Origin: Pristiophorus japonicus
Taxonomy: Eukaryota
NCBI RefSeq assembly: GCF_044704955.1
Contig: NW_027254409.1
Span: 310,001 to 374,000, forward strand
Direction: 5' to 3'
DNA: 64,000 nt
Positions 2,501 through 64,000 of this stretch are shown in pieces; the first letter of the stretch is position 1, and each line of letters opens with the position of its first letter. The position numbers were made by a program, and so were the translations under genes. Under the pieces are notes generated by a model. It saw only the letters and a program-made list of their open reading frames with translations. It was not told where the DNA came from and made no database searches.

Positions 2501-2639
2501 CCACACCCTGAGATTTCACTGGAATGTGTAACTGGAACCGCCCATCCCAAGGTCTCACTGACTTTGCAAATTGAAACTTGATCCACTTTGAATTGCTGAA
2601 GTGACAGAGGACAGAGCTCCCCATAAGATAGCAAGGGCC

Positions 2640-5600: not shown

Positions 5601-7450
5601 GCCTTACCCTAGTCCCAGTGCATGCCTCCCCCAACCGTAGTGCCTTATCCTAATCCCAGTGTATCCCTCCCCCAATTGAAGTGCCCTTAACACAGTCTCA
5701 GTTTATGCCTCCCCCATTTGAAGTGTCTTATTCCAGACCCAGTGTAGCCCTCCCACAGTTGAAGTGCCTTTCCTCCAGTCCCAGTGTATCCCTCCACCAG
5801 TTGAAGTGTCTTACTCCAGTCCCAGTGTTAGCATCCCCCAGTTGAAGTGCCTTACCCCAGTCCCAGGGTATCCCTCCCAGCTGAAGTGCCTTTGCCCAGT
5901 CCTGGTGTAAGCCTCCCGCAGTTGAAGTGTCTTATTCCAGACACAGTGTATCCCTCCCACAGTTGAAGTGCCTTTCCTCCAGTCACATTGTATCGCTCCC
6001 CAGCCAAAGTTTCTTACTCCAGTCCCAGTGTATGCCTCCCTCAGTTGAAGTGCCTTACCCCAGTGCCAGTTTATCCCTCCCCCAGTTGAAGTGCCTTACC
6101 CCAGTGCCAGTTTATCCCTCCCACAGTTGAAGTGCCTTACCCCAGTCCCAGCGCATGCCTCCCCCAGTTGAAGTACCTTGTTATTGTCCCAATATATCCC
6201 TCCCACATTTGAAGTACCTTACCCCAGTCCCAGTGTATCCCTCCCCAGCCGAAGTACCTTACCCCAGTCCATGTGTATCCCTCCCCCAGTTGAAGCACCT
6301 TGTTCCTGTCCCAATGTATCCCTCCCACATTTGAAGTGCCTTACCCCAGTCCCAGTGTATCCCTCCCCAGCCGAAGTACCTTACCCCAGTCCATGTGTAT
6401 CCCTCCCCCAGTTGAAGTACGTTGTTCCTGTCCCAATGTATCCCTCCCACATTTGAAGTGCCTTACCCCAGTCCCAGTGTATTCCTCCCCAGCCGAAGTG
6501 CCTTACCCCAGTCCCAGTGCATGCCTGCCCTAGTTGAAGTGCCTGAACCCAGTCCCAGTGCATGCCTACCCTAGTTGAAGTGCCTTAACCCAGTCCCAGT
6601 GCATGCCTACCCTAGTTGAAGTGCCTTAACCCAGTCCCAGTGCATGCCTGCCCAAGTTGAAGTGCCTTAACGCAGTCCCAGTGCATGCTTACCCGAGTTG
6701 AAGTGCCTTACCCCAGTCCCAATGTATCCCTCCCCCAGCCGATGTGTCTTACCCCAGTCCCAATGTATCCCTCCCCCACCGATGTGCCTTACCCCAGTCC
6801 CAATGTATCCCTCCCCAGCTGAAGTGCCTTACCCCAGTCCCAATGTATCCCTCCCCCACCGATGTGCCTTACCCCAGTCCCAATGTATCCCTCCCCCAGT
6901 TGAAATGCCTTACCACAGTCCCAATGTATCCCTCCCCCAGTTGAAATGCCTTACCCCAGTCCCAATGTATCCCTCCCCCACCGATGTGCCTTTTCCCAGT
7001 CCCAATGTATCCCTCCCCCAGTTGAAGTGCCTTACCCCAGTCCCAGTGCATGTGTCCCCGACCCGATGTGCCTTACCCCAGTCCTAGTGCATGTCTCCCC
7101 CAGCCGATGTGCCTTACCCCAGTCCTAGTGCATGTCTCCCCCAGCCGATGTGCCTTACCCCAGTCCTAGTGCATGTCTCCCCCAGCCGATGTGCCTTACC
7201 CCAGTCCTAGTGCATGTCTCCCCCAGCCGATGTGCCTTACCACAGTCCTAGTGCATGTCTCCCCCAGCCGATGTGCCTTACCACAGTCCTAGTGCATGTC
7301 TCCCCCAGCCGATGTGCCTTACCCCAGTCCCAGTGCATGTCTCCCCCAGCCGATGTGCCTTACCCCAGTCCCAGTGCATGTCTCCCCCAGCCGATGTGCC
7401 TTACCCCAGTCCCAGTACATGTCTCCCCCAGCCGAAGTGCCTTCCTCAAG
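2640..7450. repeat. 41-bp tandem satellite array (~4.8 kb, roughly 115-120 units)
   Basis: Unit consensus CCCAGTCCCAGTGCATGCCTCCCCCAGCCGAAGTGCCTTAC, directly visible. Higher-order periods of ~409 bp (3647 vs 4056) and ~122 bp (6178 vs 6300). Confidence 0.97.
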
Positions 7451-11099: not shown

Positions 11100-12194
11100 T
11101 GAGAAACTACACCAGGACACTTCTGAGGAGGAAATAGGTATGTGGACAAAGCAGGGCGCAACGCAAGGGAAGGATAATGTTTGGAGACGAAATTACAAGG
11201 TAATGGCGCTTGAATGCATACAGAATACCTTATTGGAGTTGCATCATGGCCTGTCTCAATCAGGATGAGAGGCCATGACCGGGAGTCTTGGGAGAGATTG
11301 GTGGTGGAAAGGGATGGGGAGAGATATCACCAAACATTGCCATCGATGCATTACGTGCGCACAATATGATCCAGGCCGGCCCATTAAAATTAAAATGGGA
11401 CACCAGCCCCGTCAACGGGTGCCATGGGAACATGTACAAATTGATTTCACAGGTCCTTTGTCCCCATCCCATCGAAAAAAGATATTGCCTAGTGATTATA
11501 GATCAACTTACCCGGTGGGTAGAAGTTTTCCCCACACGTGATTGCACTGCCTCAACAGTGGTAAGGATATTCTGACCAAGGCACCCACTTCACCAGGAAG
11601 ATTGTAAAAACAATATGCCAGCTGATGGGCATAAAATAAAAATTCCACATCCCCTACCACCTGCAGAGTTCTGGGATGGTAGAGCGCATGAACCATACCC
11701 TTAAGAACGCCCTGGCAAAGGCCATGCAAACGTCAGGAAAAACGTGGACGGAAGTAGTACCCATTATATTGAGGAAGTTAAGAGCCACGACAAACTGGAC
11801 AACCGGATTAACCCCTTATGAACTAATGACAGGAAGGGCGATGCAATTACCAGAGAACATCATAACAGGGGGGGCCGATGTAGGCCCATTAAAAGACAAA
11901 ATAAAAATGTGTGCCTTGGAACTAAGTACTCAATTAAAAGGGATGTGTAAATTAGTTAGGGACAATCAGCAAGAAAGATACGCGGAAGCAGAGCTTACAA
12001 AGCTCCCTGAAGTCCCGTTGGCGGGAAGTCGCGTTATGGTAAGGGTCCTCCCGGGAAAACTGGGGTTTGCCCCAAAATGGATAGGACCATATGAGGTTAT
12101 AATCAGCGGGGACACTTGTGCCTGCATCGATGTTAAAGGGAACGGACAATGGAAGCATTGGACCCAGCTTAAGGTTTTTGAACCAGCCGTTTAG
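11100..12194 (+). pseudogene. pol: Retroviral pol, integrase portion only (disrupted)
   Basis: HHCC region (LHHGL...CHRCITC), PWEHVQIDF, LVIIDQLTRWVEVFP, DQGTHF, SSGMVERMN and a GPY-type C-terminus KWIGPYEV...WKHWTQLK. Stops, frameshifts and a small deletion near 11570. Confidence 0.92.
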
Positions 12195-19464: not shown

Positions 19465-22400
19465 ATAAGAACATAAGAACAGAAGAACATAAGAATTAGG
19501 AACAGGAGTTGGCCATCTAGCCCCTCAAGCCTGCTCCGCCACCCAACAAGATCACCGCTGATCGAGCCGTGGACTCAGCTCCACTTACGCGCCCGCTCCC
19601 CATAACCATTAATTCCCTGACTGGTTAAAAATCTATCTATCTGTGATTTGAATATATTCAATGAGCTAGCCTCAACTGCTTCCTTGGGCAGAGAATTTCA
19701 CAGATTCACAACCCTCTGGGAGAACAAATTCCTTCTCAACTCGGTTTTAAATTGGCTCCCCCGTATTTTGAGGCTGTGCCCCCTAGTTCTAGTCTCCCCG
19801 ACCAGTGGAACAACCTCTCTGCCTCTATCCTGTCTATCCCCTTCATTATTTTAAATGTTTCTATAAGATCACCCCTCATCCTTCTGAACTCCCAACGAGT
19901 AAAGACCCAATCTACTCAATCTATCATCATAACGTAACCCCCTCTTCTCCGGAATCAGCCTCGTGAATCGTTCTGTACCCCTACCAAAGCTAATATATCC
20001 TTCCTTAAGAAAGGTGACCAAAACTGCACGCAGTACTCCAGGTGCGGCCTCAACAATACCCTGTACAGTTGCAGCAGGACCTCCCTGCTTTTTACTCCAT
20101 CCCTCTCGCAGTGAAGGCCAACATTCCATTTGCCTTCCAGATTACCTGCTGCACCTGCAAATTAACTTTTTGGGATTCATGGACGAGGACCCCCAGATCC
20201 CTCTGCACTGCAGCATGTTGTAATTTCTCCCCTTTCAAATAATATTCCCTTTTACTGTTTTTTGTCCCAAGGTGGATGAACTCACATTTTCCGACATTGT
20301 ATTCCATCTGCCAAACCTTAGCCCATTCGCTTAACCTATCTAAATCTCTTTGCAGCCTCTTTGTGTCCTCACACAACCCGCTTTCCCACTAATCTTTGTG
20401 TCATCTGCAAATTTTGTTACACTACACTCAGTCCCTTCTTCCAGGTCATCTATGTATATTGTAAACAGTTGTGGTCCCAGCACCGATCCCTGTGGCACAC
20501 CACAAACCACCGATTTCCATCCCGAAAAGGACCAATTTATCCCGACTCTCTGCTTTCTGTTAGCCAGCCAATTCTCGATCCATGCTAAAACATTTCCTCT
20601 GACTCCGCGTACATTAATCTTCTGCAGTAACCTTTTGTGTGGCACCTTATCGAATGCCTTTTGGAAATCTAAATACACCACAACCATCTGTACACATCTA
20701 TCCATCATGCTCTTTATATCCTCAAAGAATTCCAATAAATTAGTTACACATCATTTCCCCTTCATGAATCCAGCTTGCGTCTGCTTGATTGCAGTATTCC
20801 TATCTAAATGTTCCGCTATTTCTTCCTTCATGATAGCTTCAAGCATTTCCCCACTACAGATGTTAAACTAACCGGCCTATAGTTACCTGCTTTTTGTCTG
20901 CCCCCTTTTTTAAACAGAGGCGTTACATTAGCTGCTTTCCAATCCGACGGCACCTCCCCAGAGTCCAGAGAATTTTGGTAGATTATAACGAAAGCATTTG
21001 CTATAACTTCCGCAATCTCTTTTAATACCGTGGGATGCATTTCATCAGGACCAGGGGACTTGTCTACCTTGAGTCCCATTAGCCTGTCCAGCACTACCCC
21101 CCTAGTGAAAGTGATTATCTCAAGGTCCTCCTTTCCCACATTCCCGTGACCAGCAATTTTTGGCATGGTTTTTGTGTCTTCCACTGTGAAGACCGAAGCA
21201 AAATAATTGCTTAAGTTCTCAGCCATTTCCACATTTCCCATTATTAAATCCCCTTTCTCATCTTCTAAGGGAACAACATTTACTTTAGTCACTCTTTTCC
21301 ATTTTATATATCTGTAAAAGCTTTTACTATCTGTTTTTATGTTTTGTGCAAGTTTACATTCATAATCTATCTTCCTCTTCTTTATTGCTTTCTTAGTCAT
21401 TCTTTGATGTCGTTTAAAATTTTCCAACTCTTCTAGTTTCCCACTAACCTTGGCCACCTTATACGCATTGGTTTTTAATTTGATACTCTCCTTTATTTCC
21501 TTGGTTATCCACGGCTGGTTATCCCTTCTCTTACCACCCTTCTTTTTCACTGGAATATATTTTTGTTGAGCACTATGAAAGAGCTCCTTAAAAGTCCTCC
21601 ACTGTAACTCAATTGTGCCACCGTTTAGTCTGTGTTCCCAGTCTACTTTAGCTAACTCTGCCCTCATCCCACTGTAGTCCCCTTTTTTAAGCATAGTACG
21701 CTCGTTTGAGACACTACTTCCTCACCCTCAATGTGTATTACAAATTCAACCATACTGTGATCAATCATTCCGAGAGGATCTTTTACTGTGAGAACGTTTA
21801 GTATTCCTGTCTCATTACACAGGACCAGATCTAAGATAGCTTGCTCCCTTGTAGGTTCTGTAACATACTGTTCTAAGAAACTATCCCGTATGCATTCTAT
21901 GAATTCCTCCTCAAGGCAAAGAACAAAAAGGGCCACTGTACAGCAAAATTGTAAAAGGACAAAGGGTGTTAAAAAAAAAGCCTGAAGTCTTTGTGTCTTA
22001 ATGCAAGGAGTATCCGCAATAAGGTGGATGAATTAACTGTGCAAATAGATGTTAACAAATATGATGTGATTGGGATTACGGAGACGTGGCTCCAGGATGA
22101 TCAGGGCTGGGAACTCAACATCCAGGGGTATTCAACATTCAGGAACGATAGAATAAAAGGAAAAGGAGGTGGGGTAGCATTGCTGGTTAAAGAGGAGATT
22201 AATGCAATAGGAAACACATTAGCTTAGATGATGTGGAATCTATATGGGTAGAGCTGCAGAACACTAAAGGGCAAAAAACGTTCGTGGGAGTTGTGTACAG
22301 ACCTCCAAACAGTAGTAGTGATGTTGGGGAGGGCATCAAACAGGAAATTAGGGCTGCATGCAATAAAGGTGCAGCAGTTATAATGGGTGACTTTAATATG

Positions 22401-25400
22401 CACATAGATTGGGCTAGCCAAACTGGAAGCAATACGGTGGAGGAGGATTTCCTGGAGTGCATAAGGGATGGTTTTCTAAACCAATATGTCGAGGAACCAA
22501 CTAGGGGGTTGGCCATCTTAGACTGGGTGTTGTGTAATCAGAGAGGATTAATTAGCAATCTCATTGTGCGAGGCCCCTTGGGGAAGAGTGACCATAATAT
22601 GGTGGCATTCTGCATTAGGATGGAGAATGAAACAGTTAATTCAGAGAACTTAAAGAAGGGAAATTTTGAATGTATGAGGCGTGAATTGGCGAGGATAGAT
22701 TGGCGAATGATACTTAAGGGGTTGACTGTGGATGGGCACTGGCAGACATTTAGAGACCGCATGGATGAACTACAAATATTGTACGTTCCTGTCCAGCGTA
22801 AAAATAAAAAAGGGAAGGTGGCTCAACCGTGGCTATCTAGGGAAATCAGGGATAGTATTAAAGCCAAGGAAGTGGCAAACAAATTGGCCAGAAATCACAG
22901 CGAACCCGGGGACTGGGAGAAATTTAGAACTCAGCAGAGGAGGACAAAGGGTTTGATTAGGGCAGGGAAAATGGAGTACGAGAAGTAGCTTGCAGGGAAC
23001 ATTAAGGCGGATTGGAAAAGTATTTATAGGTATGTAAAGAGAAAAATGTTAGTAAAGACAAACGTAGGTCCCCTGCAGTCAGAATCAGGGGAAGTCATAA
23101 CGGGGAACAAAGAAATGGCAGACCAATTGAACAAGTACTTTGGTTCGGTATTCACTCAGGAGGACACAAATAACCTTCCGGATATAAAAGGGGCCAGAGG
23201 GTCTAGTAAGGAGGAGGAACTGAGGGAAATCTTTATTAGTCGGAAAATTGTGTTGGGAAAATTGATAGGGTTGAAGGCCGATAAATCCCCAGGGCCTGAT
23301 GGACTGCGTCCCAGAGTACTTAAGGAGGTGGCCTTGAAAATAGCGGATGCATTGACAGCCATTTTCCAACATTCCATTGATTCTGGATCAGTTCCTATGG
23401 AGTGGAGGGTAGCCAATGTAACCCCACTTTTAAAAAAAGGAGGGAGAGAGAAAATAGGGAATTATAGACCGGTCAGCCTGACCTCAGTCGTGGGTAAAAT
23501 GATGGAATCAATTATTAAGGATGTCACAGCAGCGCATTTGGAAAATGGTGACATGACAGGTCCAAGTCAGCATGGATTTGTGAAAGGGAAATCATGCTTG
23601 ACAAATCTTCTGGAATTTTTTGAGGATGTTTCCAGTAAAGTGGACAAAGGAGAACCAGTTGATGTGGTATATTTGGACTTTCAGAAAGCTTTCGACGAGG
23701 TCCCACACAATAGATTAATGTGCAAGGTTAAAGCACATGGGATTGGGGGTAGTGTGCTGACGTGGATTGAGAACTGGTTGGCAGACAGGAAGCAAAGAGT
23801 AGGAGTAAATGGGTACTTTTCAGAATGGCAGGCAGTGACTAGTGGAGTACCGCAAGGTTCTGTGCTGGGACCCCAGCTGTTTACATTGTACATTAATGAT
23901 TTAGACGAGGGGATTAAATGTAGTATCTCCAAATTTGCGGATGACACTAAGTTGGGTGGCAGTGTGAGCTGTGAGGAGGATGCTATGAGGCTGCAGAGTG
24001 ACTTGGATAGGTTATGTGAGTGGGCAAATGCATGGCAGATGAAATATAATGTGGATAAATGTGAGTTTATCCACTTTGGTAGTAAAAACAGAGGCTCAGA
24101 CTATTATCTGAATGGTGACAGATTAGGAAAAGGGGAGGTGCAACGAGACCTGGGTGTCATGGTACATCAGTCATTGAAGGTTGGCATGCAGGTACAGCAG
24201 GCGGTTAAGAAAGCAAATGGCATGTTGGCCTTCATAGCGAGGGGATTTGAGTACAGTGGCAGTGAGGCGTTGCTACAGTTGTACAGCGCCTTGGTGAGGC
24301 CACACCTGGAGCATTGTGTGCAGTTTTGGTCTCCTAACTTGAGGAAGGACTTCTTTGCTATTGAGGGAGTGCAGCGAAGATTCACCAGACTGATTCCCGG
24401 GATGGTGGGACTGACCTATCAAGAAAGACTGGATCAACTGGGCTTGTATTCACTGGAGTTCAGAAGAATGAGAGGGGACCTCATAGAAACGTTTAACATT
24501 CTGACGGGTTTAGACAGTTTAGATGCAGGAAGAATGTTCCCAATGTTGGGGAAGTCCAGAACCAGGGGTCACACTCTAAGGATAAGGGGTAAGCCATTTA
24601 GGACCGAGATGAGGAGAAACTTCTTCACCCAGAGAGTGGTGAACCTGTGGAATTCTCTACCACAGAAAGTAGTTGAAGCCAATTCACTAAATATATTCAA
24701 AAGGGAGTTAGATGAAGCCCTTACTACTCGGGGGATCAAGGGGTATGGCGAGAAAGCAGGAAGGGGGTACTGAAGTTTCATGTTCAGCCATGAACTCATT
24801 GAATGGCGGTGCAGGCTAGAAGGGCTGAATGGCCTACTCCTGCACCTATTTTCTATGTTTCTATGTTTCTACCCCGTGTGATTTCATTTGACCAATCGAT
24901 ATGTAGATTAAAATCCCCCATGATTACTGCTGTTCCTTTTTCACATGCCTCCATTATTCCCTTGATTATTGTCCGCTCCACCGTGAAGTTATTATTTGGG
25001 GGCCTATAAACTAAGCCCATCAGTGACTTTTTCCCCTTACTATCTCTAATCTCCACTCACAATGATTCAACATTTTGTTCATTAGAGCCAATATCGTCTC
25101 TCACAACTGCCCTGATATCATCCTTTATTAACAGAGCTAACACCCCTCCTTTCCCGTCTTGTCTATCTTTCCGAATTGTCAGATAACCTGTATGTTTAAT
25201 TCCCAGTCTTGGCCACCCTGCAACCTCGTTTCTGTAATGGCCACCAAATCATACCCATTTGTAATGATTTGTGCCGTCAACTCATTTACATTATTTTGAA
25301 TGCTGCGTGCGTTTTGGTAGAGTATTTTAATACTAATTTTTACACCATGATTTTTAGTTTTGACCCCTCCTGCAGCCCCTTTATATTCATACATATTGTT

Positions 25401-27913: not shown

Positions 27914-28821
27914 CTAGTTTACTAACATTACAATTCGATTGCAAAAATATTTTGCCGCATGCTTTAACTCCTCCCTGAATTTTTTCTGAGTCACTTCATA
28001 AATAGACGTGTTGGTGCAGCAACTTAGGAGCTGGAGCATGTTTCCCCTTTCCTGGCGAATGAACCTGGGGTCATTGAAATTGGAACCTGCGAAATAAGAT
28101 TCGTTTGTAATTTTCACATACAAGAAATCTACAACATACGTCATCCATAACAGGATAAAACTGCCCGAGATGGTGAAGAGTAAAATGATGGACTTTCTGC
28201 GCCTCTCCATCTCTGGATCACTCTCATTCTTTCCATTGATGTGGGCCCGGAGCCTCCTGCGGGCTCTGTTGGCTCCTACAATGTCTCTGACGGTCAGAGC
28301 ATTCAGCAGCAAGATCAGGAAGAACGGGAGGCCTGGGTTTAAAAGACGAGCAAACCAATCATACGCTGTCCACGCGAGTGAAGTGTAGAAGCTGGATTTA
28401 ATATTACAAAACCAAGGGACCTTGTTGATTATATCGAGTGGTTCGTATATAAAGTACCAGCGAACGCTTTTTAAACAGCTCAGTAAACAGACCGTTCATA
28501 TAACCACAGCCGCTGTTTTCTCGGTGCAATAATTTGTTTTCAGCTTCTGGCAACAAATGGCTACAAATCGATCAAAGATGAAAGCGACCGTTAATCAGAC
28601 CGAACTCTCCGTGGCTGCATACATTACCACAGTACTAAGAGTACACGCCGGGGTCAGGGACAAGAAACTAACTGGAAAATAAATGCCACTATTCCGATTG
28701 AATATCACAGCTGTGATAACGACCAGAAGATCCGTCACCGCCATGGACACAAGGTACCGAGTGATACATCTGGAGAGACCGCACCTTCCTCGGGACAGGA
28801 TCACAATTGCCACTAAATTAA
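27914..28821 (-). pseudogene. Class A GPCR pseudogene, GPR139/GPR142-like, main coding exon
   Basis: Acceptor CTCTCAG, then VNLVAIVILSRGRCGLSRCITRYLVSMAVTDLLV...SV*LTVAFIFDRFVAICCQKLKTNYCTEKTAAVVI*...PFFLILLLNALTVR...RRKSIILLFTISGSFILLW...LQLLSCCTNTSIY. Seven-TM pattern with a DRF motif and two in-frame stops. A decayed first exon may lie at ~28985-29157. Confidence 0.88.
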
Positions 28822-37439: not shown

Positions 37440-40400
37440 GCCAGCTCCCTAATTGACTGTGTGATGCCCTCCACAACATCACTACTACTGTTTGGATGTC
37501 TGTACACAACTCCCACTAACGTGTATTGCCCTTTGGTGTTCTGCAGCTCTACCCATATAGATTCCATATCATAGGGGTGCATTTTCAGCTCCGGGTTTCG
37601 GAGCTTGAGCGGTTGCTAGCGTCAATGCAGTCTATCCGCGGGGCTCAGAGCTTCGAGGATAACACATTTCAGGAGGTAGTCACCCAGCAGCTTAAAATTG
37701 TGCAGGCATAGAGGGAATGGAAGATCGTCAGACAGACAAGGTGGAACTGGCATGTAGGACAGGAATCCCCTGACTCATTAACCGCTTTCCAGTTCTGGTT
37801 AATGAGGAGCACCATGGTTGCTCTGGGGTGTGAATCCAATGCCAAGTCCACGGAACCATAGGTGGCTCAGCTGCACAGAAGGGAAGGAAGAAGAGTGGAA
37901 GAGCAATAGTGGTAGGTCAATTGATACATGGGGAATAGACAGACATAGAAACATAGAAAATAGGTGCAGGACTAGGCCATTCGGCCCTTCTAGCCTGCAC
38001 CGCCATTCAATGAGTTCATGGCTGAACATGCAACTTCAGTACCGCATTCTGCTTTCTCGCCATACCCCTTAATCCCCCTAGTAATATGGACGTTTGGCGG
38101 CTGCAGACGTGACTCCAGGATAGTTATTGCCTCCCTGGTGCAAGGGTCAAGGTTTGTCACTGAAAGTGTGCAGGACATTGTGAGGGAACCGGGGGGAGGG
38201 GGGTTAATAGCCAGAAGTCGTGGTCTATATTGTCAAAAATGACAAAGGTCGAAAGAGAGATGACGTCCTGCAGGCAGTTCTGAGGGAGCTGGGAAGGAGA
38301 CTAAAAAACAGGACATCAAAAGTAGTAATCTCCAGATTACTCCCAGTACCACGTGCTAGTGAGTACAGGAATAGGAGGATCGAGCGGGTGAATATGTGGC
38401 TTGAGACGATGCAGGAGGGAAGACTTTAAATTCTTGTGGTATTGCGACTGTTTCTGGGGGCTGTATGACCTGGACAAGCCAGTCGGGTTGCACCTGAACA
38501 AAGCTGGGACCTAGATCCTCTCCAAGCTGGGGAGAGCCTCAGCTCGTTTGTGGGAAAAATTTTCGACGAAATGCTGATGGATAGGATAAATCTTCATTTG
38601 GGAAGACACGGATTAATCAAGGACAGTCAGCATGGATTTGTTAAGGGAAAGTCGGGTCTGTCTACCGATTGACTCTCCTGTATAGCCACTCAAAAAATTT
38701 AATGAGGGCAGTGCATTTGATGTAGTGTATATGAATTCTAGCAACGATGTTGATAAAGTCCCACAAGGCAGACTGGTCACAAAAGTATAAGCAATTGGGA
38801 TACAAGGCAAAGTGGCAAGTTGGATTCAAAATTGGCTCAGAGTCAGGAAGCAAAGGTTAATGGTTGATGGGTGTTTTTGAGACTGGAAGGCTGTCTCCAG
38901 TAGCGAATCCATAGGGCTCACTACTAGGTCCCTTTTTTATCAATAATTTGGACTTGAATCTACAGGGTATGATTAGGAAGTATGCAGATGACACACAAAT
39001 TGGTCTTGTGGTTGATAATGAAGAAGAAAGCTATAGACTGCAGGGAGATGTCAATGGACTGATCAGGTGGGCAGAATAGTAGCAAGTGGACTTCAATCCG
39101 CGGAAGTGTGTGGTCTTGCATTTGGGGAGGGCTAACAACGCAAGGGAATACACAATGAATCGTAGGATACTGAGAAGTGTCGATGAATAAAGAGATCTAG
39201 GAGTGCATATCCACAGACCCATGAAGGTTTCAGGACAGGTAGACATTCTAAATATATTAAGTGGATAACTAGAGAAAGAATGGGGCCTATTAGAGACCAC
39301 AAAGGAAATGTGTGTGTGGAAGCAGAAGATGTGAATCTAATTGTTAATAAATACCCTGCATTTGTTTTCACAAAAGAGAGGGGCGATGCAGATTTTGCAA
39401 TGAGGGAGGAGTGTGAAATATTGGACGAGGTAAACATAGTTAGAGAAGAAGTATTAAGGGACTTAGCAGCTTTGAAAGTGGATAAATCCCCAGGCCCAGA
39501 TGAAATGTATTTCAGGCTGTTAAGAGAAGCAAACGAGGAAATAGCAGAGGCTCTGACCATCATTTTCCAATCCACACTGGCTACAGGTGTGGTGCCAGTG
39601 GACTGGAGGACCTCTAATGTTTAACCTTTGTTTAAAAAGGGAGACAAGGATAGATCGATTTATTAAAGGCCTGTCAGCCTAACCTCAGTGGTGGGAATTT
39701 TTTTTGGAAAAATCCTGAATGACAGGATAAATCTTCATTTGGAAAGACATGGATTAATCAGGAACAGTCCGCACGGATTTGTTAAGGGAAGGTCATGTCT
39801 GACTAACTTGATTGAATCTGTCCCTTCTTCCCGTTCATCCATGCATATTGTAAACAGTTCTGGTCCCAGCACCGATCCCTGTGGCACACCACTAACCACC
39901 GGTTTCCAACCCGACAAGGACCCATTTATCCCGACTCTCTGCTTTCTGTTAGCCAGCTAATTCTCTATCCTTGCAAATACATTTCCTCTGAATCCACGTA
40001 CCTTTATCTTCTGCCGTAACCTTTTGTGTGGCACCTTATCGAATGCCTTTTGGAAATCTAAATACACCACATTCATCGGTATATCTCTATCCACTATGCT
40101 CATTATATCCTCAAACAATTCAGTAAATTAGTTAAACATGATTTCCCCTTCATGAATCCATGATGCGTCTGCTTTATTGCACTATTCCTATCGAGATGTC
40201 CCGCTATTTCTTCCTTAATGATAGCATCAAGCATTTTCCCCACTACAGATGTTAAACTAACCGGCCTATAGTTACTTGCCTTTTGTCTGACCCCTTTGTT
40301 AAACAGAGGCGTTACATTTGCTGCTTTCCAATCCGCTGGTACCTCCCCAGAGTCCAGAGAATTTTGGTAGATTATAACGAATGCATCTGCTATAACTTCC

Positions 40401-41082
40401 GCCATCTCTTTTAATACCCTGGGATGCATTTCATCAGGACCAGGGGACTTGTCTACCTTGAGTCCCATTAGCCTATCCAGCACTACCCCCGTTGTGATAA
40501 TGATTATCTCAAGGTCCTCCCTTCTCACATTCCCGTGACCAGCAATTTCTGCAATGGTTTTTGTGTCTTCCACTGTGAAGACCGAAGCAAAATAATTGTT
40601 TAGGGACTCAGCCATTTCCACATTTCCCATTATTAAATCCGCCTTCTCATCTTCTGAGGGACCAACATTTACTTTAGTCACTCTTTTCCGTTTTATATAT
40701 CGGTAAAAGCTTATACTATCTGTTTTTATGTGTTGCGCAAATTGACTTTCGTCATCTATCTTTCCTTTCTCTTTTGCTCTCTTAATCATTCTTTGCTGTC
40801 GATTAAAATTTTCGCAATCTTCTAGTTTCCCGCTAACATTGGCCACCTTATACGCATTGGTTTTTAATTTGATACTCTCCTTTATTTCCTTGGTTATCCA
40901 CGGCTGGTTATCCCTTCTCTTGCCGCCCTTCTTTTTCACTGGAATATATTTTTGTTGAGCACTATGAAATAGCTCCTTAAAAGTCCTCCACTGTTCCTCA
41001 ATTGTGCCACCGTTTAGTCAGCGTTTCCAGTCTACTTTAGACAACTCTGCCATCATCCCACTGTAGTCCCCTTTGTTTAAGC
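37440..41082. mobile_element. Mosaic of CR1 fragments: EN (-, 37440-37572), ORF1 (+, 37575-38520, with a minus 3'-tail insert at ~37940-38082), RT pieces (+, 38545-39245 and 39270-39815), ORF2 (-, 39816-41082)
   Basis: ORF-track peptides ESIWVELQNTKG, RRLKNRTSKVVISRLLPVPR and LKVDKSPGPDEM. The 40103-40939 ORF is nearly identical to the 20828-21694 ORF. Confidence 0.88.
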
Positions 41083-43352: not shown

Positions 43353-43569
43353 GTGATATCACTATCGCAGAAAATTGTTTTTGTCAGTGCAACTTCCTGT
43401 ATATTGCATTTCGTGTTTACCTGTTTGACATCATCACGTCAGCAACACGTAAACAATGGGTGACGTCATTGTTTACAACAAAGCAGCGTCATCAACGTGA
43501 TTTGGTCGCCATTGCTACATCAGTGCGACGTCTGACCCTCAGCCAAATGGATTGCTCGATTTGACCTAT

Positions 43570-44520
43570 ATATACACCAGGGTCTAGTGCAGTAATAACC
43601 GAGACACGTCCAAGTGTAACATAGACAGAGAGAGGATATAGTGTAATATCTACAATGACAGGGACCAGTGTAAAAAAAAAAGACACAGCGTCTAGTGTAA
43701 TATAAACAGAGACAGGGTCTTGTGTAATATAAACAGAGACAGTGTCTAGTGTAATATAGAAAATAAAGGGTATCGTGTAATATAAACAGAGACAATGTCG
43801 AGTGTAATATAAAAAATACATTTTCTAGTGTAATATAAACAGAGACAGTGTCTAGTGTAATATAAACAGAGACAGTGTCTAGTGTAATATAAACAGAGAC
43901 AGTGTCTAGTGTAATATAAACAGAGACAGTGTCTAGTGTAATGTAAAAAATACAGTGTCTAGTATAATATAAACAGAGACAGGGTCTAGTGTAATATAAA
44001 TAGAGACAGGGTCGAGTGTAATATAAATAGAGACAGGGTCTAGTGTAATATAACCAGAGACAGGACCAATCTATTATAAAGAGACAGGGGATAGTATAAT
44101 ATAAATAGTGACAGAGTCCAACATAATATAACAAAGGATAAAGTGCTCTAATACTAACTAATACATGAACTATTGTAGTAGAAACATTGACATTTTCTAG
44201 TGCAATATAAACTGAGACATGTCGAGTGTAATATAAAGCGAGACAGGAACTAGTGAAATATTGACAGAAACGTGGTGTACGGTCATATAAACAGTGACAG
44301 CGTCTAGTTCAGTAGTAACTGAGAATGGGTCTAATGTATTATAACGGAGGGTCCAGTACTGTGATAACTGATACAGAGCCGAGCATAATATAAACAGAGA
44401 CAGGGTCTAGTGCAGTAATAACTGAGACAGGGCCTTGTGCAATCCGAAAAGAGAGATGTAGTTATAATTAAACAGGGTCCAGAGTAATTTAAACATATAG
44501 AATGTCTGGAATAATTTGAT
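43570..44520 (+). repeat. 27-bp minisatellite array, forward orientation
   Basis: TAGTGTAATATAAACAGAGACAGGGTC units. A short array of the same unit is at 41083-41230. Confidence 0.9.
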
Positions 44521-44649
44521 AGTAACATTCCAGCCATGCGAATCTTCATGTGGTCTGACTGTCTATCTGTCTGTCGTTCGGTCGGTCGGTCCATTCGTCT
44601 GTCCGTCCGTCCGTCGATTCGTACTTCTATCCATCTATCTGTACTTCTA

Positions 44650-46690
44650 TCTAATATTACACTAGAACCTGTCTCTCTTAAGATCCTGTTCCTGTTAATA
44701 TTACCCGAGACCCTGTCTCTGTTTATATTACCCGTGTCCATGTCTCTGTTTATATTGTACTAGACCCTGTCTCTGTTTATATTACACTAGACTCTGTCCC
44801 AGTTTTTATTATACTGGACACTGTCTCTGTTTATATTAGTCAAGACTCTGTCCCTGTTTATATTATAATGGATCCTGTCGGTGTTTAGATTATACTGGAC
44901 CCTGTCCCAGTTTATATCGCACTAGACCCTGTTTCTGTTTATATTAAGTAGACTCTGTTTCTGTTTTTATTACACTGGACCCTGTCTCTGTTTATATTAC
45001 ACTAGACCCTGTCCCAGTTTATATTACACTAGACCCTGTCTCTGTTTATATTGTACTAGACCCTGTCTCTGTTTATATTACACTAGACCCTGCCTCTGTT
45101 TACATTACATTAGACCCACTCCCAGTTCATATTATACCAGAGACTGTCTCTGTTTATATTAGTCTAGACCCTGTCTCTGTTTATATTCTACTAGACCCTG
45201 TCTCTGTTTATATTACACTGGACCCTGTTTCTGTTTATATTAAACTAGACCCTGTCTCTGCTTATTTTACACTAGACCCTGTCTCTGTTTATATTCTTCC
45301 AGACACTATCGCTGTTTATATTACACTAGACTCTGTCTCTGTTTATATTACACTAGACCCTGTCTCTGTTTATATTGTACTAGACGCTGTCTCTGTTTAT
45401 ATTAAACTAGACCCTGCCTCTGTTTACATTACACTAGACCCTCTTCCAGTTCATATTATACTGGACCCTGTCCCTGTTTATATTAAACTAGATCCTGTCT
45501 CTGTTTATTTTACACTGGACCCTGTCTCTCTTCATATTACATTAGACCCTGTGTCCTTTTATATTAAACACGACCCTGTCTCTGTTTATATTACACTAGA
45601 CCCTGTCTCTGTCTATATTCTTCTTAACACTATCCCTGTTTATATTGGACTCGACCCTGTCTCTGTTTATATTGAACTAGACCCTGTCTCTGTTTTTATT
45701 GCACTAGACCCTGTCTCTGTTTATATTACACCAGACACTGCCTCTGTTTATATTCGTTCTGACACTATCCCTGTTTATATTACACTAGACCCTGTCTCTG
45801 TTTGTATTACACTAGACCCTGTCCCTGTTTATATTACACTAGACCCTGTCTTTGTTTATATTCTTCCAGACACTATCCCTGTTTATTTTGGACTCGACCC
45901 TGTCTCTGTTTATATTAAACTAGACCCTGTCTCTGTTTATATTACACTAGACCATGTTTCTGTTTATATTCTTTCTGACACTATCCCTGTTTATATTACA
46001 CTATACCCTGTCTCTGTTTGTATTACACTAGACCCTGTCTCTGTTTATATTACACTAGACCATGTCTCTGTTTATAATACACCAGACACTGCCTCTGTTT
46101 ATATTCTTTCTGACACTATCCCTGTTTATATTACACTGGGCCCTGTCTCTGTTTGTATTACACTAGACCCTGTCACTGTTTATATTACACTAGACCCTGT
46201 CTCTGTTTTTATTCTTCCAGACATTATCCCTGTTTATATTACACTAGACCCTGTCTCTGTTTATAATACACTAGACCCTGTCTCTGTTTATATTAAAATA
46301 GACCCTGTCTCTGTTTATATTACACTAGACCATGTCTCTGTTTATATTCTTTCTGACACTATCCCTGTTTTTATTACACTAGACCCTGTCTCTGTTTGTA
46401 TTACACTAGACCCTGTCTCTGTTTATATTACACTAGACCATGTCTCTGTTTATATTACACCAGACACTATCTTTGTTTATATTCTTTCTGACACTATCTC
46501 TGTTTATATTACACTAGACCCTGTCTTCCCTGTCTTTTTTTGTATTACACTAGACCTTGTCTCTGTTTATATGCCAGTAGACACTGTCTCAGTTTATATC
46601 ACACGAGACCCTGTCTCTTTTTATAATACGCCAGGCATTGTCACTGTTTATATTATCCTCGACACTGTCTCTCTTTGTATTACCCAGATC
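44650..46690 (-). repeat. 27-bp minisatellite array, inverted relative to 43570-44520
   Basis: GACCCTGTCTCTGTTTATATTACACTA units (~75 copies); source of the LDPVSVYIT pseudo-ORF. Confidence 0.95.
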
Positions 46691-47509
46691 ATCTTTCCTT
46701 TTCAAATATATATTGATTTCCCTATTTGAAAGTTATAATTACATTTGCTGCCATCACCCTTTCAGACACTGCATTCCAGGTTATTACTACTCGCTGCATA
46801 AAAAATCTCCTTATCTCCCGTCTGGATTTATTTTTTCATTCATCTTAATCTTTGTGTTCTGGTTACCGATAGACCTACCGATAGAATCCCCACCTTACTA
46901 TTAACTCAATGAAACCCCTTCACAATTTTGAAAACATCTGTTAATTCTCCCCTAAGCATACCCTGCTATAATAAGAATAAACCCATCCTCTCTCGTCTCC
47001 ACAAAACTGAACTCCCTCATGCCTTCCACCAATCTCCTCTGCATCCTCGACAAGAGCCCGACAATCTTCTTAAAATGTGGATTGAAAAAAATGCAATCTT
47101 TATTTGTCCTTCAGATTATTTCTAAGGATACATGCTCCCTTCAAATTTGACTGACTGAGAAGCATTAATTATATTGTTTTACTTGTTTTGACAAAACGGA
47201 CGGTGACTGAAATGCTCAGCAACATCTGTCTCCACATGACTCATGTATCAATATGATCTCTGTCGCCACCTGCTGATAAACGACATCTACTGCAAGCTCC
47301 AGAGCTTACTTTAAACATGATTCATAACACCCACTACAATAACTTGCTTGAACGTTTAACCAGAGGATTTTTTTTAGAACAAACCACAAGAGGTGCAGAT
47401 GATCAGGAAGTATCAAGGGCGGAATTAGCAAAATTATTATTGCAAATTCACCTTCAGCTCATCATACAGAGCCGTCAGATTAGATAAACATCCATAATGA
47501 ATAAAAACC

Positions 47510-50734: not shown

Positions 50735-50910
50735 TGGAAGGAGTGACGTGGATCCAGAAACCGCTTCTATCAGGGAATCAATGGGTGGCGCCTTTCACCT
50801 CGCCCCCATCACCCGGGTATTTAGCTGCCGGCCACTGGGAGCGCAATACAACAGTCTGGGAGTGGGTTTGCTCAGTGAGTTCTTGCCGGAACCAGTCACC
50901 ACACATTGCC
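50735..50910 (+). promoter_or_regulatory. VH promoter, octamer-less, with CRE-like element and TATA-like box
   Basis: AGTGACGTGG at ~50742 and GTATTTAG at ~50817. No ATGCAAAT octamer seen. Confidence 0.5.
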
Positions 50911-50962
50911 ATGAGGATGAGGTCGGCGATTGCTTTCGTTCTGTTGCTGGCTTTACTTTCCC
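50911..50962 (+). pseudogene. IGHV: VH leader exon
   Basis: MRMRSAIAFVLLLALLS(R), phase-1 donor C|GTGTGT, 128-nt intron ending TTTTTACAG at 51090. Confidence 0.9.
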
Positions 50963-51090
50963 GTGTGTAGATTTTATTGTCCAATTCTCTCATTGTTACT
51001 GTCTCAGTGAAAGTCTCTCTCTGGAATTTTACAGAGTCAGGAATCATTTCTCGAGGATTGATCCTCGGGGTATTTTGATTATTTTTACAG

Positions 51091-51410
51091 GTGTCCAGTC
51101 GGATGTGGTGTTGACTCAGCCCGAGGCAAAGACCAGGATTTCCTGAGGCTTCCTGAGACTGACCTGTAAACCAGCGGGTTCGATCTTAGCGGATATGGCA
51201 TGAACTGGGTCCGCCAGGTTCCCGCACAGGAGCTGGAGTGGCTGGTTTACTATTACACTCCATCGAACAAGAATAACGTCCCAGGGATTGAGAGCCGATT
51301 TACTGTATCCAAAGACACTTCAAACAACATCTTCACGTTGGACATGAAGAACATGAGGAGCGAAGACACCGCCATCTATTACTGTGCAAGGAAGGACTAC
51401 GGGAGTGGGT
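51091..51410 (+). pseudogene. IGHV: VH exon fused to a D-like segment (germline-joined VD)
   Basis: [25 protein letters not shown][frameshift][15 protein letters not shown]...LEWL...RFTVSKD...[10 protein letters not shown], then 19 extra nt AAGGACTACGGGAGTGGGT before the heptamer. Confidence 0.92.
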
Positions 51411-51448
51411 CACGGTGAAATACAGAGCGAGCTCTCCATACAAAAACC
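51411..51448 (+). promoter_or_regulatory. Recombination signal sequence, 22-bp spacer (23-class)
   Basis: CACGGTG + 22 nt + perfect nonamer ACAAAAACC. Confidence 0.93.
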
Positions 51449-51765
51449 CCAGACAGGGAGTTTGCTCAAACCTGCGACCATTACCACGCCAGGAGCGTCG
51501 AAGGAACTGAGGCTTAAATAAAAATAATTAGAAATAAGTTATATATATATATATATTTAAATGTGTAACAGTTTTCTTCTTTATTACTATTGATTGCCAT
51601 GTTGAACATGCACAGATGCTTCAGAAGTATTCCAATCATTTTTGTAAATATAATGAACGGTAAAAAATGAAATATCTCGCTGATTCACTCTTACGAGAGT
51701 CGGAATCGTGTTTTTAGAGCTGTGTGGAATTTAATCTCTGTATTTTACAGTTAACAGTCCGCCGG

Positions 51766-51793
51766 AGTATTTGACACAACGTTTCTCACTGTG
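51766..51793 (-). promoter_or_regulatory. Recombination signal sequence, probable 12-bp spacer
   Basis: AGTATTTGA (6/9 match to GGTTTTTGT) + 12 nt + perfect CACTGTG. No nonamer-like sequence at 22/23 spacing. Confidence 0.7.
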
Positions 51794-51843
51794 TTACGCA
51801 ATGGGCTACTGGGGACAAGGGACCATGGTGACGGTGACTGCAG
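51794..51843 (+). other. IGHJ: JH segment (possibly D2-J fused)
   Basis: YAMGYWGQGTMVTVTA followed by donor G|GTAAGG. Confidence 0.95.
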
Positions 51844-58372: not shown

Positions 58373-58672
58373 TAACACGGTCTCCCCCCACCCTCTGCGC
58401 CCTGTTCGCCTCCTGTGAACAACCCAGCACCGATGGCTCCATCACGTAGGGCTGTTTGGTGATGGACTACTCCCCTGACATCATCAGACTTTTCTGGAAG
58501 GAAGATAAAGAGCCGATCACCACTGGATTGAAGATCTACCCGTCATTGATCAAAAAGAATTGAGCCTACACACTGAGCAGCCAGTTAACCATCACCGAGT
58601 CCGAGTTGGGGAGCAGCACAATTTGCTGCGAGGTTCGACGTGGTGGATCGGTGTGGAACATCACAATGTCAG
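58373..58672 (+). pseudogene. IGHM: Cmu1 exon
   Basis: TCCCAG acceptor; SPPTL...[21 protein letters not shown]...[17 protein letters not shown]...[14 protein letters not shown]...CEVRRG. Stops at 58447 and 58561. Confidence 0.93.
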
Positions 58673-61455: not shown

Positions 61456-61763
61456 TGGATGTCCCATGCAGCGATTAAAAATCACTCTTCGCCCACCGTA
61501 ATTGGAACAGGTTTTACTGGAGGCAACGGTGACCTTAACGTTTGTCGTGTCTGACGCTCCTTATGGGCTCACCGTGACCTGGACCCGAAAAAACGAGACT
61601 TTGAAATCAGAGATTGCCGTCCAACCCAGAGAGGATCCCAACAGTGTGATCAGCAACTTAAACATCTCGACAAAAGACTGGCTGAGTGGGGATAAGTTCT
61701 ACTGCGTGGTGAGCCATCAGGATATGCCGATTCCTCTCAGAGATTCCAGCCACAAGGAAAAGG
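61456..61763 (+). pseudogene. IGHM: Cmu3 exon
   Basis: TTTCGCAG acceptor; early frameshift and TAA at 61499; [22 protein letters not shown]...[17 protein letters not shown]. First Cys changed to Phe. Donor G|GTGAGC. Confidence 0.92.
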
Positions 61764-62680: not shown

Positions 62681-63045
62681 CGAAAGATCCGCGGGAACCG
62701 GCCATGTCTGTCCTCCTGCCCTCAGCAGAAGAAGTCTCTGCTCAGAGGTTGGTCAGCCTCACCTGCTTAGTGAGAGGTTTCTCCACCCGAGAGATCTTCG
62801 TCAAAAGGACCGTCAATGATAAACTGGTGGATTACGGCAACTACAAGAACACCGAGGTGATGGCGGAGAACGGCAGCAGCTCCTTCTTCATGTACAGCCT
62901 GCTATCCATTGCAGCCAAGGAATGGGCCAGCGGCGACTCTCACTCCTGTGTGGTGGGACATGAAGTGATCCCATTGATAATCACCAACAGAACCGTCAAT
63001 AAATCCAGTGGTAAAGCATTTCCCTTGTTCTGATGGACAACGTCA
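62681..63045 (+). pseudogene. IGHM: Cmu4 exon plus damaged secretory tailpiece
   Basis: CCTACAG acceptor; [32 protein letters not shown]...[11 protein letters not shown]...[15 protein letters not shown]...[10 protein letters not shown]. Internal G|GTAAA membrane-form donor at 63010/63011. Tail remnant ISLVLMDNV is out of frame. Confidence 0.93.
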
Positions 63046-64000
63046 TAAGAACATAAGAACATAAGAATTAGGAACAGGAGAAGGCCATCTAGCCTCTCGA
63101 TCCTGCTCCGCCATTCAACAAGATCAGGGCTGATCTGGGCTTGGACTCAGCTCCACTTACCCGCCCGCTCCCCATAACCCTTAATTCCCTTATTGGTTAA
63201 AAATCTATCTATCTGTGAATTGAATACATTCAATGAGCTATCCTCAATTCCTCCCCTTTGCAGAGAATTCCACAGATTCACAACTTTGTTGGAGAAGAAA
63301 TTCCTTCTCAACTCAGTTTTAAATTGGCTCACTCGTATTTTGAGTCTCTGCCCCCTAGTTCTAGTCTCCCCGACCAGTGGAAACAACCCCACTGCCTCTA
63401 TCTTGTGTATGCCTGTCATTGTTTGAAATGTTTCTATCGATCACCCCTCATCCTTCTGAACTCCAACGAGTAAAGACCCACTCTACTCAATCTATCATCA
63501 TAAGGTAACCCCCTCATCTCCTGAATCAGCCTCGTGAATCAACTCTGTACCCCCTCCAAAGCTAGTATATCCTTCCTTAAGTAAGGTGGCCAAAACTGCA
63601 CGCAGTACTCCAGGTGCGGCCTCACCAACACCCTATACAGTTGCAGAAGGACCTCCCTGCTTTTGTACTCCATCCCTCTGGCAATGAAGGCCAACATTCC
63701 ATTCGCCTTCCTGATTACCTGCTGCACCTGCAAACTAACATCTTGGGATTCATGGACAAGGACCCCCAGATCCCTCTGCATCGCAGCATGTTATAATTTC
63801 TCCCCATTCAAATAATATTCCCTTTGCGTGTTTTTTTTCTTCAAGGTGGATGACCTCACACTTTCCGACATTGTATTCCATCTGGCAAGCCTTAGCCCAT
63901 TCGCTTAACCTATCTAAATCTCTTTGCATCCTTTCTGTGTCCTCTGCACAACCCGCTTTCCCACTAATCTTTGTGTCATCTGCAAATTTTGTTACACTAC
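63046..64000 (-). mobile_element. CR1 LINE (TAAGAACA-tail subfamily) running off the window end
   Basis: Closely similar to 19465-20430; QRDLGVLVHESQ...[16 protein letters not shown]. Confidence 0.95.

Follow-up and report, generated by a model that had tools for sequence, protein, structure and literature searches.

How does an IgM heavy-chain cluster come to lie in the germline with its V already joined to a D, a 22-spacer RSS behind that D and a J that begins directly at a 12-spacer RSS? We met this layout in a 64,000-nt stretch (G000:C3797:310001-374000, hereafter the window) of the 5.9 Gb assembly of Pristiophorus japonicus. A sequence-only reading of the window had explained it by two RAG-type joins fixed in the germline, V to D1 and D2 to J, which left the D1-D2 interval in place and the cluster rearrangeable in one step. 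We compared the window with the IgM clusters of the same assembly, and we describe below the state of the window copy, the origin of its interval and of its two joins, and the relatives in which the same architecture may still be in use.

The window cluster is a pseudogene in V and C

The window cluster comprises a leader-V-D-J unit, four Cμ exons and a secretory tail, is damaged, and fits an elasmobranch IgM minicluster (within about 20 kb; Table 1). The order of signals stated by the sequence-only reading can be read directly: the YYC end TGTGCAAGG (51383-51391) is followed by 19 nt (51392-51410) and then by the 22-spacer RSS, a 12-spacer RSS (AGTATTTGA-12-CACTGTG) adjoins J, which begins directly after it, and no free D was found between the two signals. 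The 22-spacer RSS, with heptamer CACGGTG (51411-51417), a 22-nt spacer and nonamer ACAAAAACC (51440-51448), was the sole match in the window at one mismatch from consensus, and none of 100 shuffles yielded one. On consensus alone the J-side 12-RSS stands at chance level, with three nonamer mismatches and 0.97 matches expected per shuffled window. We judged the RSSs against those of canonical paralogues, using no RSS information-content model, and accept the J-side 12-RSS as real because of its homology to the 5′ RSS of D2 and not because of its consensus score. About 170 bp 5′ of the leader there is a TGACGT motif (50740-50752), which we take to resemble the CRE-like promoter element of shark VH genes.

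Table 1. Coordinates of the IgM cluster features, counted from the first letter of the window
Feature	Position	Strand	Evidence or remark
VH leader exon, 46 nt, GT donor at 50963	50917..50962	+	Sequence; spliced translation agrees with intact paralogues
VH exon, pseudogene; 3′ end trimmed relative to unjoined paralogues	51091..51391	+	Pfam V-set, E 9e-14; alignment
V/D1 junction, 2 nt (AA), probably V-derived	51392..51393	+	Comparison with copy L026 and the unjoined V end
Complete D1 coding segment, 17 nt, joined to V	51394..51410	+	14 of 17 nt same as the free D1 of unjoined cluster L084
D1 3′ RSS, 22-nt spacer	51411..51448	+	Canonical clusters carry the same RSS after D1
D1-D2 intersegment	51449..51765	+	About 80% identity, blastn E 1e-34 and 2e-20 to D1-D2
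Former D2 5′ RSS, 12-nt spacer, adjoining J	51766..51793	+	Homology to the canonical D2 5′ RSS
TT, 2 extra nt between heptamer and J core	51794..51795	+	12 of the 44 relatives lack them
JH coding segment, 14 nt ahead of the Trp codon like canonical J; GT donor at 51844	51796..51843	+	
Cμ1 exon, stop codons at 58447 and 58561	58373..58672	+	
Cμ2 exon, open frame, splice acceptor AG changed to AA	59166..59484	+	
Cμ3 exon, 1-nt deletion near 61477, stop at 61500	61456..61763	+	
Cμ4 (open) and secretory tail with 13-nt deletion	62681..63043	+	Pfam C1-set; IgM Cμ chains among the best PDB matches

A TGA (51144-51146) and the loss of 1 nt at about 51168 break the VH exon; the sequence-only reading was silent on both. 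Homology to intact clusters stops near 63043. We looked for a transmembrane exon, present in five paralogues, over the final 4 kb of the window and the 10 kb beyond it, and found none; it may lie further on. The window copy is a dead IgM heavy-chain gene, a pseudogene in both V and C, and we regard its VD-(12)J architecture together with its pseudogene status as close to certain. Its remaining 22/12 pair obeys the 12/23 rule, and RAG could still join D1 to J; even after that join the copy could not yield a heavy chain, so that the proposed one-step rearrangement has no consequence for this locus.

The rest of the window holds features of other kinds. We take the stretches 20828-24773 (with a 594-codon open frame at 22989-24773), 40103-41017 and 63043-64000 to be pieces of CR1-like LINE reverse transcriptase, the last of which starts right after the secretory tail. 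A piece from the ORF listing at 11640-12194 presumably resembles a retroelement integrase, and a 193-codon frame on the minus strand (27914-28495) what we assume to be the second half of a rhodopsin-type GPCR. Long minisatellite arrays at 2592-5612 and 43520-46729 give low-complexity open frames.

IgM clusters of the assembly

DNA and motif searches of the assembly yielded 88 IgM V-J regions, all of which we typed. The window's VH family, family I, is the largest of the assembly (n = 72), with 9 unjoined V-23/12-D-22/12-J clusters, 35 VD-22/12-J, 20 V-23/12-DJ and 8 VDJ. Family II (n = 16) consists of 12 canonical V-23/12-D1-22/12-D2-12/23-J clusters, 2 V-DD-J, 1 V-DJ and 1 VDJ. A 12-RSS on J is thus carried by 44 clusters, the nine unjoined single-D clusters and the 35 VD-(12)J copies, and the latter divide by their V-D1 junction into type A (26, including the window) and type B (9). 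Chromosome C23 alone holds 30 VD-(12)J, 9 single-D, 16 V-DJ and 6 VDJ clusters. Type A copies are 92.9-100% identical to one another, and 23 of the 26 are spread over 43 Mb of C23; over 9.9 kb the window agrees with C23:58.02 Mb at 99.9% of positions, and unplaced contigs such as its own may be haplotype duplicates.

None of the 72 family I clusters is canonical, as judged with probes for the V motif (87 matches), two J motifs (52 and 82), the V-D1 spacer (41), the D2-J spacer (14, all in family II) and the D2 3′ RSS pattern (17, of which 14 belong to family II and 2 to a TCR J array, 1 being unrelated); canonical members could have escaped by divergence or lie in assembly gaps. At C23:9.66-9.68 Mb (L158, L160) there are 18 12-spacer RSSs with J-like segments on the minus strand over 20 kb, which we take to be, probably, TCR alpha J segments. 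A TCR J array on C23 alongside IgM clusters is in line with the linkage of IgH and TCR alpha/delta described in the accessible part of PMC12227049.

The 20 V-DJ clusters (L077-L083, L087-L099) show four junction types. In type 2 (9 copies) D1 lies directly on a 14-nt J with no nucleotides between, and L081 has a stop in Cμ1. The clusters fully joined in the germline (L127-L131, L134, L135, L157, L132) go back to several origins. One junction is common to L129-L131 and L157, which together make up the deepest branch sampled in family I. In family II, D1 and D2 are clearly fused in L117 (C158:2040), where D2 is intact; L112 (C3:330677998) has one 12/12 D and L109 (C645) is V-DJ. Cμ3 and the membrane exon appear frameshifted in the canonical family II cluster L101 (C27:19.72 Mb; L153-L154), and so a canonical layout does not imply function here. 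Two V matches, L133 (C13:186.99 Mb) and L136 (C3915), are VH-like but distinct, with a 23-RSS and no J nearby, and were excluded from the cluster counts; they are possibly TCR-delta-associated V segments.

The interval is a D1-D2 spacer ending in the old 5′ RSS of D2

We tested window positions 51411-51793 against three of the 12 canonical clusters. In all three they aligned with the D1-D2 spacer, about 80% of positions being identical (blastn E 1e-32 to 1e-34), and the window interval gave no blastn match to V-D1 or D2-J of these three clusters. The window's intersegment holds an AT-rich stretch of about 90 nt; family II clusters lack it. At the position aligned with the J-side RSS of the window, 10 of the 12 canonical clusters carry AGTATTTGG-12-CACTGTG as the 5′ RSS of D2, from which the window differs at one of nine nonamer positions and at none of the seven heptamer positions. 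By alignment, then, the interval is the D1-D2 spacer, as the sequence-only reading had proposed, and because both flank and RSS match the canonical D1-D2 spacer and D2 5′ RSS, the J-side signal is the old 5′ RSS of D2. A decayed 22/23-RSS at this place, considered beforehand, was rejected: alignment scores were 46-48 for D2-J against 244-254 for D1-D2, there was no blastn match to D2-J, and the likeness to the canonical J flank was local and by eye only.

The same alignments bear on the notion of a primordial single-D, TCR-beta-like cluster in which J always had its own 12-RSS and D2 was never present. The TCR-beta signal layout is V-23/12-D-23/12-J, and the nine unjoined single-D clusters, whose V frames are all open, have the same RSS order, so that the cluster type that had been offered as an alternative to two joins does exist. 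However, its J-side RSS and the 380 bp 5′ of it are homologous to the canonical D1-D2 spacer and D2 5′ RSS and not to a J flank, and the 12-RSS-J clusters form a shallow subclade within family I. We consider a primordial origin very improbable. The single-D clusters are IgM, would derive from a two-D cluster and resemble TCR-beta by convergence; they appear to be a derived state and the likely precursor of the window locus rather than a rival to it.

V and D1 were joined in the germline, twice

The window is 91.5% identical to the unjoined cluster L084 over 952 aligned columns. Relative to L084 it is without the V 23-RSS, the V-D1 spacer and the D1 5′ RSS, and the gap ends exactly at the D1 heptamer border with D1 complete. 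In all nine unjoined paralogues V ends at its own 23-RSS and the same D1 stands free as a 17-nt segment, which bears out the V-D1 join. A V gene naturally longer by 19 nt was rejected, the V of unjoined paralogues ending 2-4 nt past TGTGCAAGG. The two nucleotides between V and D1 are AA in the window and GA in the basal copy L026; since GA is also the unjoined V end, N addition is not required. In the nine type B copies V and D1 overlap in a 4-nt GGAC microhomology. A single V-D1 join for all 35 copies was rejected, the union of types A and B giving p-AU 8.6e-5 (28 of 75 rows), and on these trees V and D1 were joined twice independently. Multiple independent joins at RSS borders are the pattern used to infer germline RAG activity at light chains, so far as the available text of PMC2193156 and PMC2193153 goes.

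We built a tree from flanking sequence without the junctions, with 75 rows comprising all 71 family I rows then known and 4 of the 16 family II clusters. Types A and B were each recovered as a clade (support 100/100 each), and all 44 12-RSS-J clusters fell in one 51-row clade (99/97) together with seven V-DJ type 1 clusters. The J-side tree (28 rows) supports this 51-row grouping at 100/98; the V-side tree alone leaves its base open. A clade of 12-RSS-J clusters without V-DJ type 1 was rejected (p-AU 9e-4). Because types A and B both branch among the unjoined single-D clusters in the 75-row tree, the J-side event would precede the V-D1 joins, and this order, J side first and V-D1 later, is the simplest.

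As the assembly stands, the VD-(12)J layout is a germline state, with 35 copies in total and 26 diverged type A copies of one junction type. A lymphocyte's rearrangement intermediate caught in the assembly would have the right form, VD-DJ intermediates having been described in nurse shark thymocytes and spleen (PMC2435157, in part). Yet the same two junctions recur in 26 diverged copies at separate sites with common inactivating mutations, whereas somatic junctions are unique per clone in the accessible text of that paper; a lymphocyte join could not give the number, spread and identity of the type A copies, and we give this explanation next to no weight. The V stop and deletion of the window are common to 25 of the 26 type A copies, the 26th carrying its own frameshift, and most of the type A amplification would therefore have followed inactivation.

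Origin of the J-side join

Canonical D2 is 13 nt long, and in all 12 canonical clusters J has 14 nt ahead of its Trp codon. Where J follows the 12-RSS, this length is 14 nt in 12 of the 44 clusters and 16 nt in the other 32, with no trace of the GTAC start of D2. On these lengths D2 supplies at most 2 nt and J is untrimmed. Of the two RAG joins first proposed, that of V to D1 therefore stands, while a D2-J join is overstated with 0-2 nt left of a 13-nt D2. In canonical clusters the 5′ 12-RSS of D2 and the 23-RSS of J form a 12/23 pair in the same orientation, and the window product, an intact signal end joined to an untrimmed J, is what a RAG hybrid joint predicts.

We propose that RAG cut the 5′ 12-RSS of D2 and the 23-RSS of J in an ancestral V-D1-D2-J cluster and that the signal end was joined to the J coding end as a hybrid joint; D2 and the D2-J spacer would have been lost, giving a single-D V-23/12-D1-22/12-J cluster. 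A single-D copy would then have taken an ordinary V-D1 coding join, with V trimmed by a few nucleotides and D1 intact. Its V would have gained the stop and the frameshift, and the dead cluster would have been duplicated along C23. To this whole account, two separate germ-cell RAG events including the hybrid joint on the J side and then copying, we assign a probability of roughly 0.55. Three points weigh against the hybrid joint. The native D2 and J ends of family I are taken from family II, which is about 20% divergent, there being no canonical cluster among the 72 of family I; the 2 extra nucleotides of 32 of the 44 copies could be a remnant of D2; and CACTGTG occurs as a direct repeat at D2 and J, so that a deletion at this 7-nt microhomology leads to the product seen in the 14-nt class.

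The second of these points leads to an ordinary D2-J coding joint, between the 3′ 12-RSS of D2 and the 23-RSS of J, with D2 trimmed to 0-2 nt; the history would otherwise be the same and the cluster a textbook VD-DJ. Coding joints are the usual product of RAG, other germline joins in the assembly are of this kind (for example the D1D2 fusion of L117), and VD-DJ is described in germline and somatic DNA in the available parts of PMC5192425, PMC2193153 and PMC2435157. Such a joint needs, however, 11-13 of the 13 D2 nucleotides to be lost from one end and none from J. Moreover 12 of the 44 copies keep none, and the TA or TT of the other 32 does not match the GT with which D2 starts in family II, a comparison in which the native family I D2 is read from that roughly 20% divergent family. 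We hold the coding joint to be unlikely, though a serious competitor.

The third point would dispense with RAG on the J side and leave the V-D1 join as its only product, by deletion between the CACTGTG repeats of D2 and J. Both heptamers read CACTGTG in 11 of the 12 canonical clusters, and such a deletion yields precisely the 14-nt class (12 of 44). The 16-nt class, which includes the window, is not explained in this way unless the native family I J has 16 nt, and the many other joins at RSS borders in the genome make RAG activity available as a cause. We judge such a deletion improbable. Taking the J side by itself, we would put a little over half of the weight on the hybrid joint, just under a third on the trimmed coding joint and about a seventh on the repeat deletion.

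Whichever mechanism applied, the J side may have a more involved history. That the 14-nt and the 16-nt J ends each had one clean origin was rejected, each class as a clade giving p-AU 7e-4, and classes distributed in this manner would need repeated loss, repeated events or gene conversion. V-DJ type 1 clusters, nested in the 51-row clade, have 5 extra nucleotides, which agree in register with the start of D2 in family II, and D2-bearing clusters may thus have persisted and the J-side event have happened more than once. Together the two observations make gene conversion or repeated events on the J side likely.

Relatives with intact frames

All nine unjoined single-D clusters (L031-L035, L072, L075, L084 and L085; G000:C23, 24-55 Mb) have open V frames. 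Among five whose constant regions were checked, three have four open Cμ exons with secretory and membrane exons, one has a frameshift in Cμ3 and one has only Cμ1 within 20 kb. The nine type B VD-(12)J clusters (L027-L030, L036-L040) likewise have open V frames, and in L028, the one of the nine checked in full, the frames of V and C are open and the splice sites intact; without trimming, its D1-J join would give 39 nt from Cys to Trp, in frame. Type B clusters are the best candidates for one-step rearrangement, and intact relatives in this family, having lost D2, would probably need one step fewer than usual. In type A the J-side heptamer has decayed to CACTCTG in 10 of 26 copies and the D1 nonamer is altered in 8 of 26, against no such decay at either site among the 18 single-D and type B clusters, which is a hint of selection only, the copies being related.

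A wider reading can be offered tentatively, and we hold it less probable than the account of the window locus. The hybrid joint would have deleted D2 and given JH a 12-RSS, and the rewired single-D form would have replaced the canonical two-D form in the largest VH family. The nine V-D-J and nine VD-J members with intact V would need two steps or one to assemble IgM, and their CDR3s would be shorter, in a lineage that kept joining segments in germ cells (two V-D1 joins and at least one D1-J join).

Comparison with known systems

The layout of the window is not new, and Harding is said to have reported a VD-DJ cluster from skate in 1990. What sets the family apart is its complete loss of D2, the 12-RSS on J and the single-D members with intact frames. 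Our literature search found no report of a D2-less JH family with a 12-RSS; it covered few subscription papers and is weak evidence of absence.

A germline 'V D1-D2J' is described in PMC2193153, germline VD-DJ clusters are named in the accessible part of the review PMC5192425, and about half of elasmobranch IgH loci are partly or fully joined according to the available text of PMC3308330. In the partly joined germline IgM clusters of horn shark and little skate (VD-J, VD-DJ, V-DD-J, VDJ), as far as the consulted parts of PMC5192425, PMC2193153, PMC3308330 and PMC4279169 describe them, V is fused to D1, the D1-D2 spacer is kept, J is fused 3′ and Cμ lies downstream, as in the window, and they coexist with canonical and fully joined clusters as in the present genome. 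Unlike the VD-DJ clusters described there, the present family has no recognisable D2 coding sequence, a contrast that may not extend to the VD-DJ clone of the skate; it also shares its J end with unjoined single-D clusters and belongs to a VH family in which no canonical member was found.

For an IgH cluster of the horn shark, PMC2193153 recounts a germline hybrid joint with RSS swapping (Kokubu 1988). There too a germline event placed an RSS on a different coding end and changed the 12/23 disposition, by a D1/D2 inversion in one cluster, whereas the present candidate is a deletion of D2 that put a 12-RSS on J in 44 clusters. The nurse shark NS4 light chain (Lee 2000, PMC2193156, in part) is alike in its several independent germline joins on a tree among split paralogues and in its junction trimming; NS4 is a light chain, whereas the present case is a heavy chain with D segments and close unjoined paralogues. 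Somatic VD-DJ intermediates of nurse shark lymphocytes (Malecek 2008, PMC2435157) have the same segment order, shark IgH segments joining in no strict order by the accessible text, but they are unique per clone, whereas the VD-(12)J of the window is fixed, amplified and decayed.

The window locus itself matters little, as a dead copy of a known kind. Its family is a dated series of germline recombination states among close paralogues: unjoined, V-D joined twice, D-J joined and fully joined. Heavy-chain junctions are hard to dissect, as noted by Lee (2000) in the available part of PMC2193156, and the series makes germline RAG activity at heavy chains dissectable, which has so far been possible mainly for light chains. 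If D2 was indeed lost by a hybrid joint, the family would be a living case of RSS swapping that created a new locus architecture. If in addition the single-D clusters are used, they would give a direct example of the route proposed for the swap of 12/23 signals and the change in D number between antigen-receptor loci, and their use would be expected to shift the IgM CDR3 repertoire of Pristiophorus japonicus measurably.
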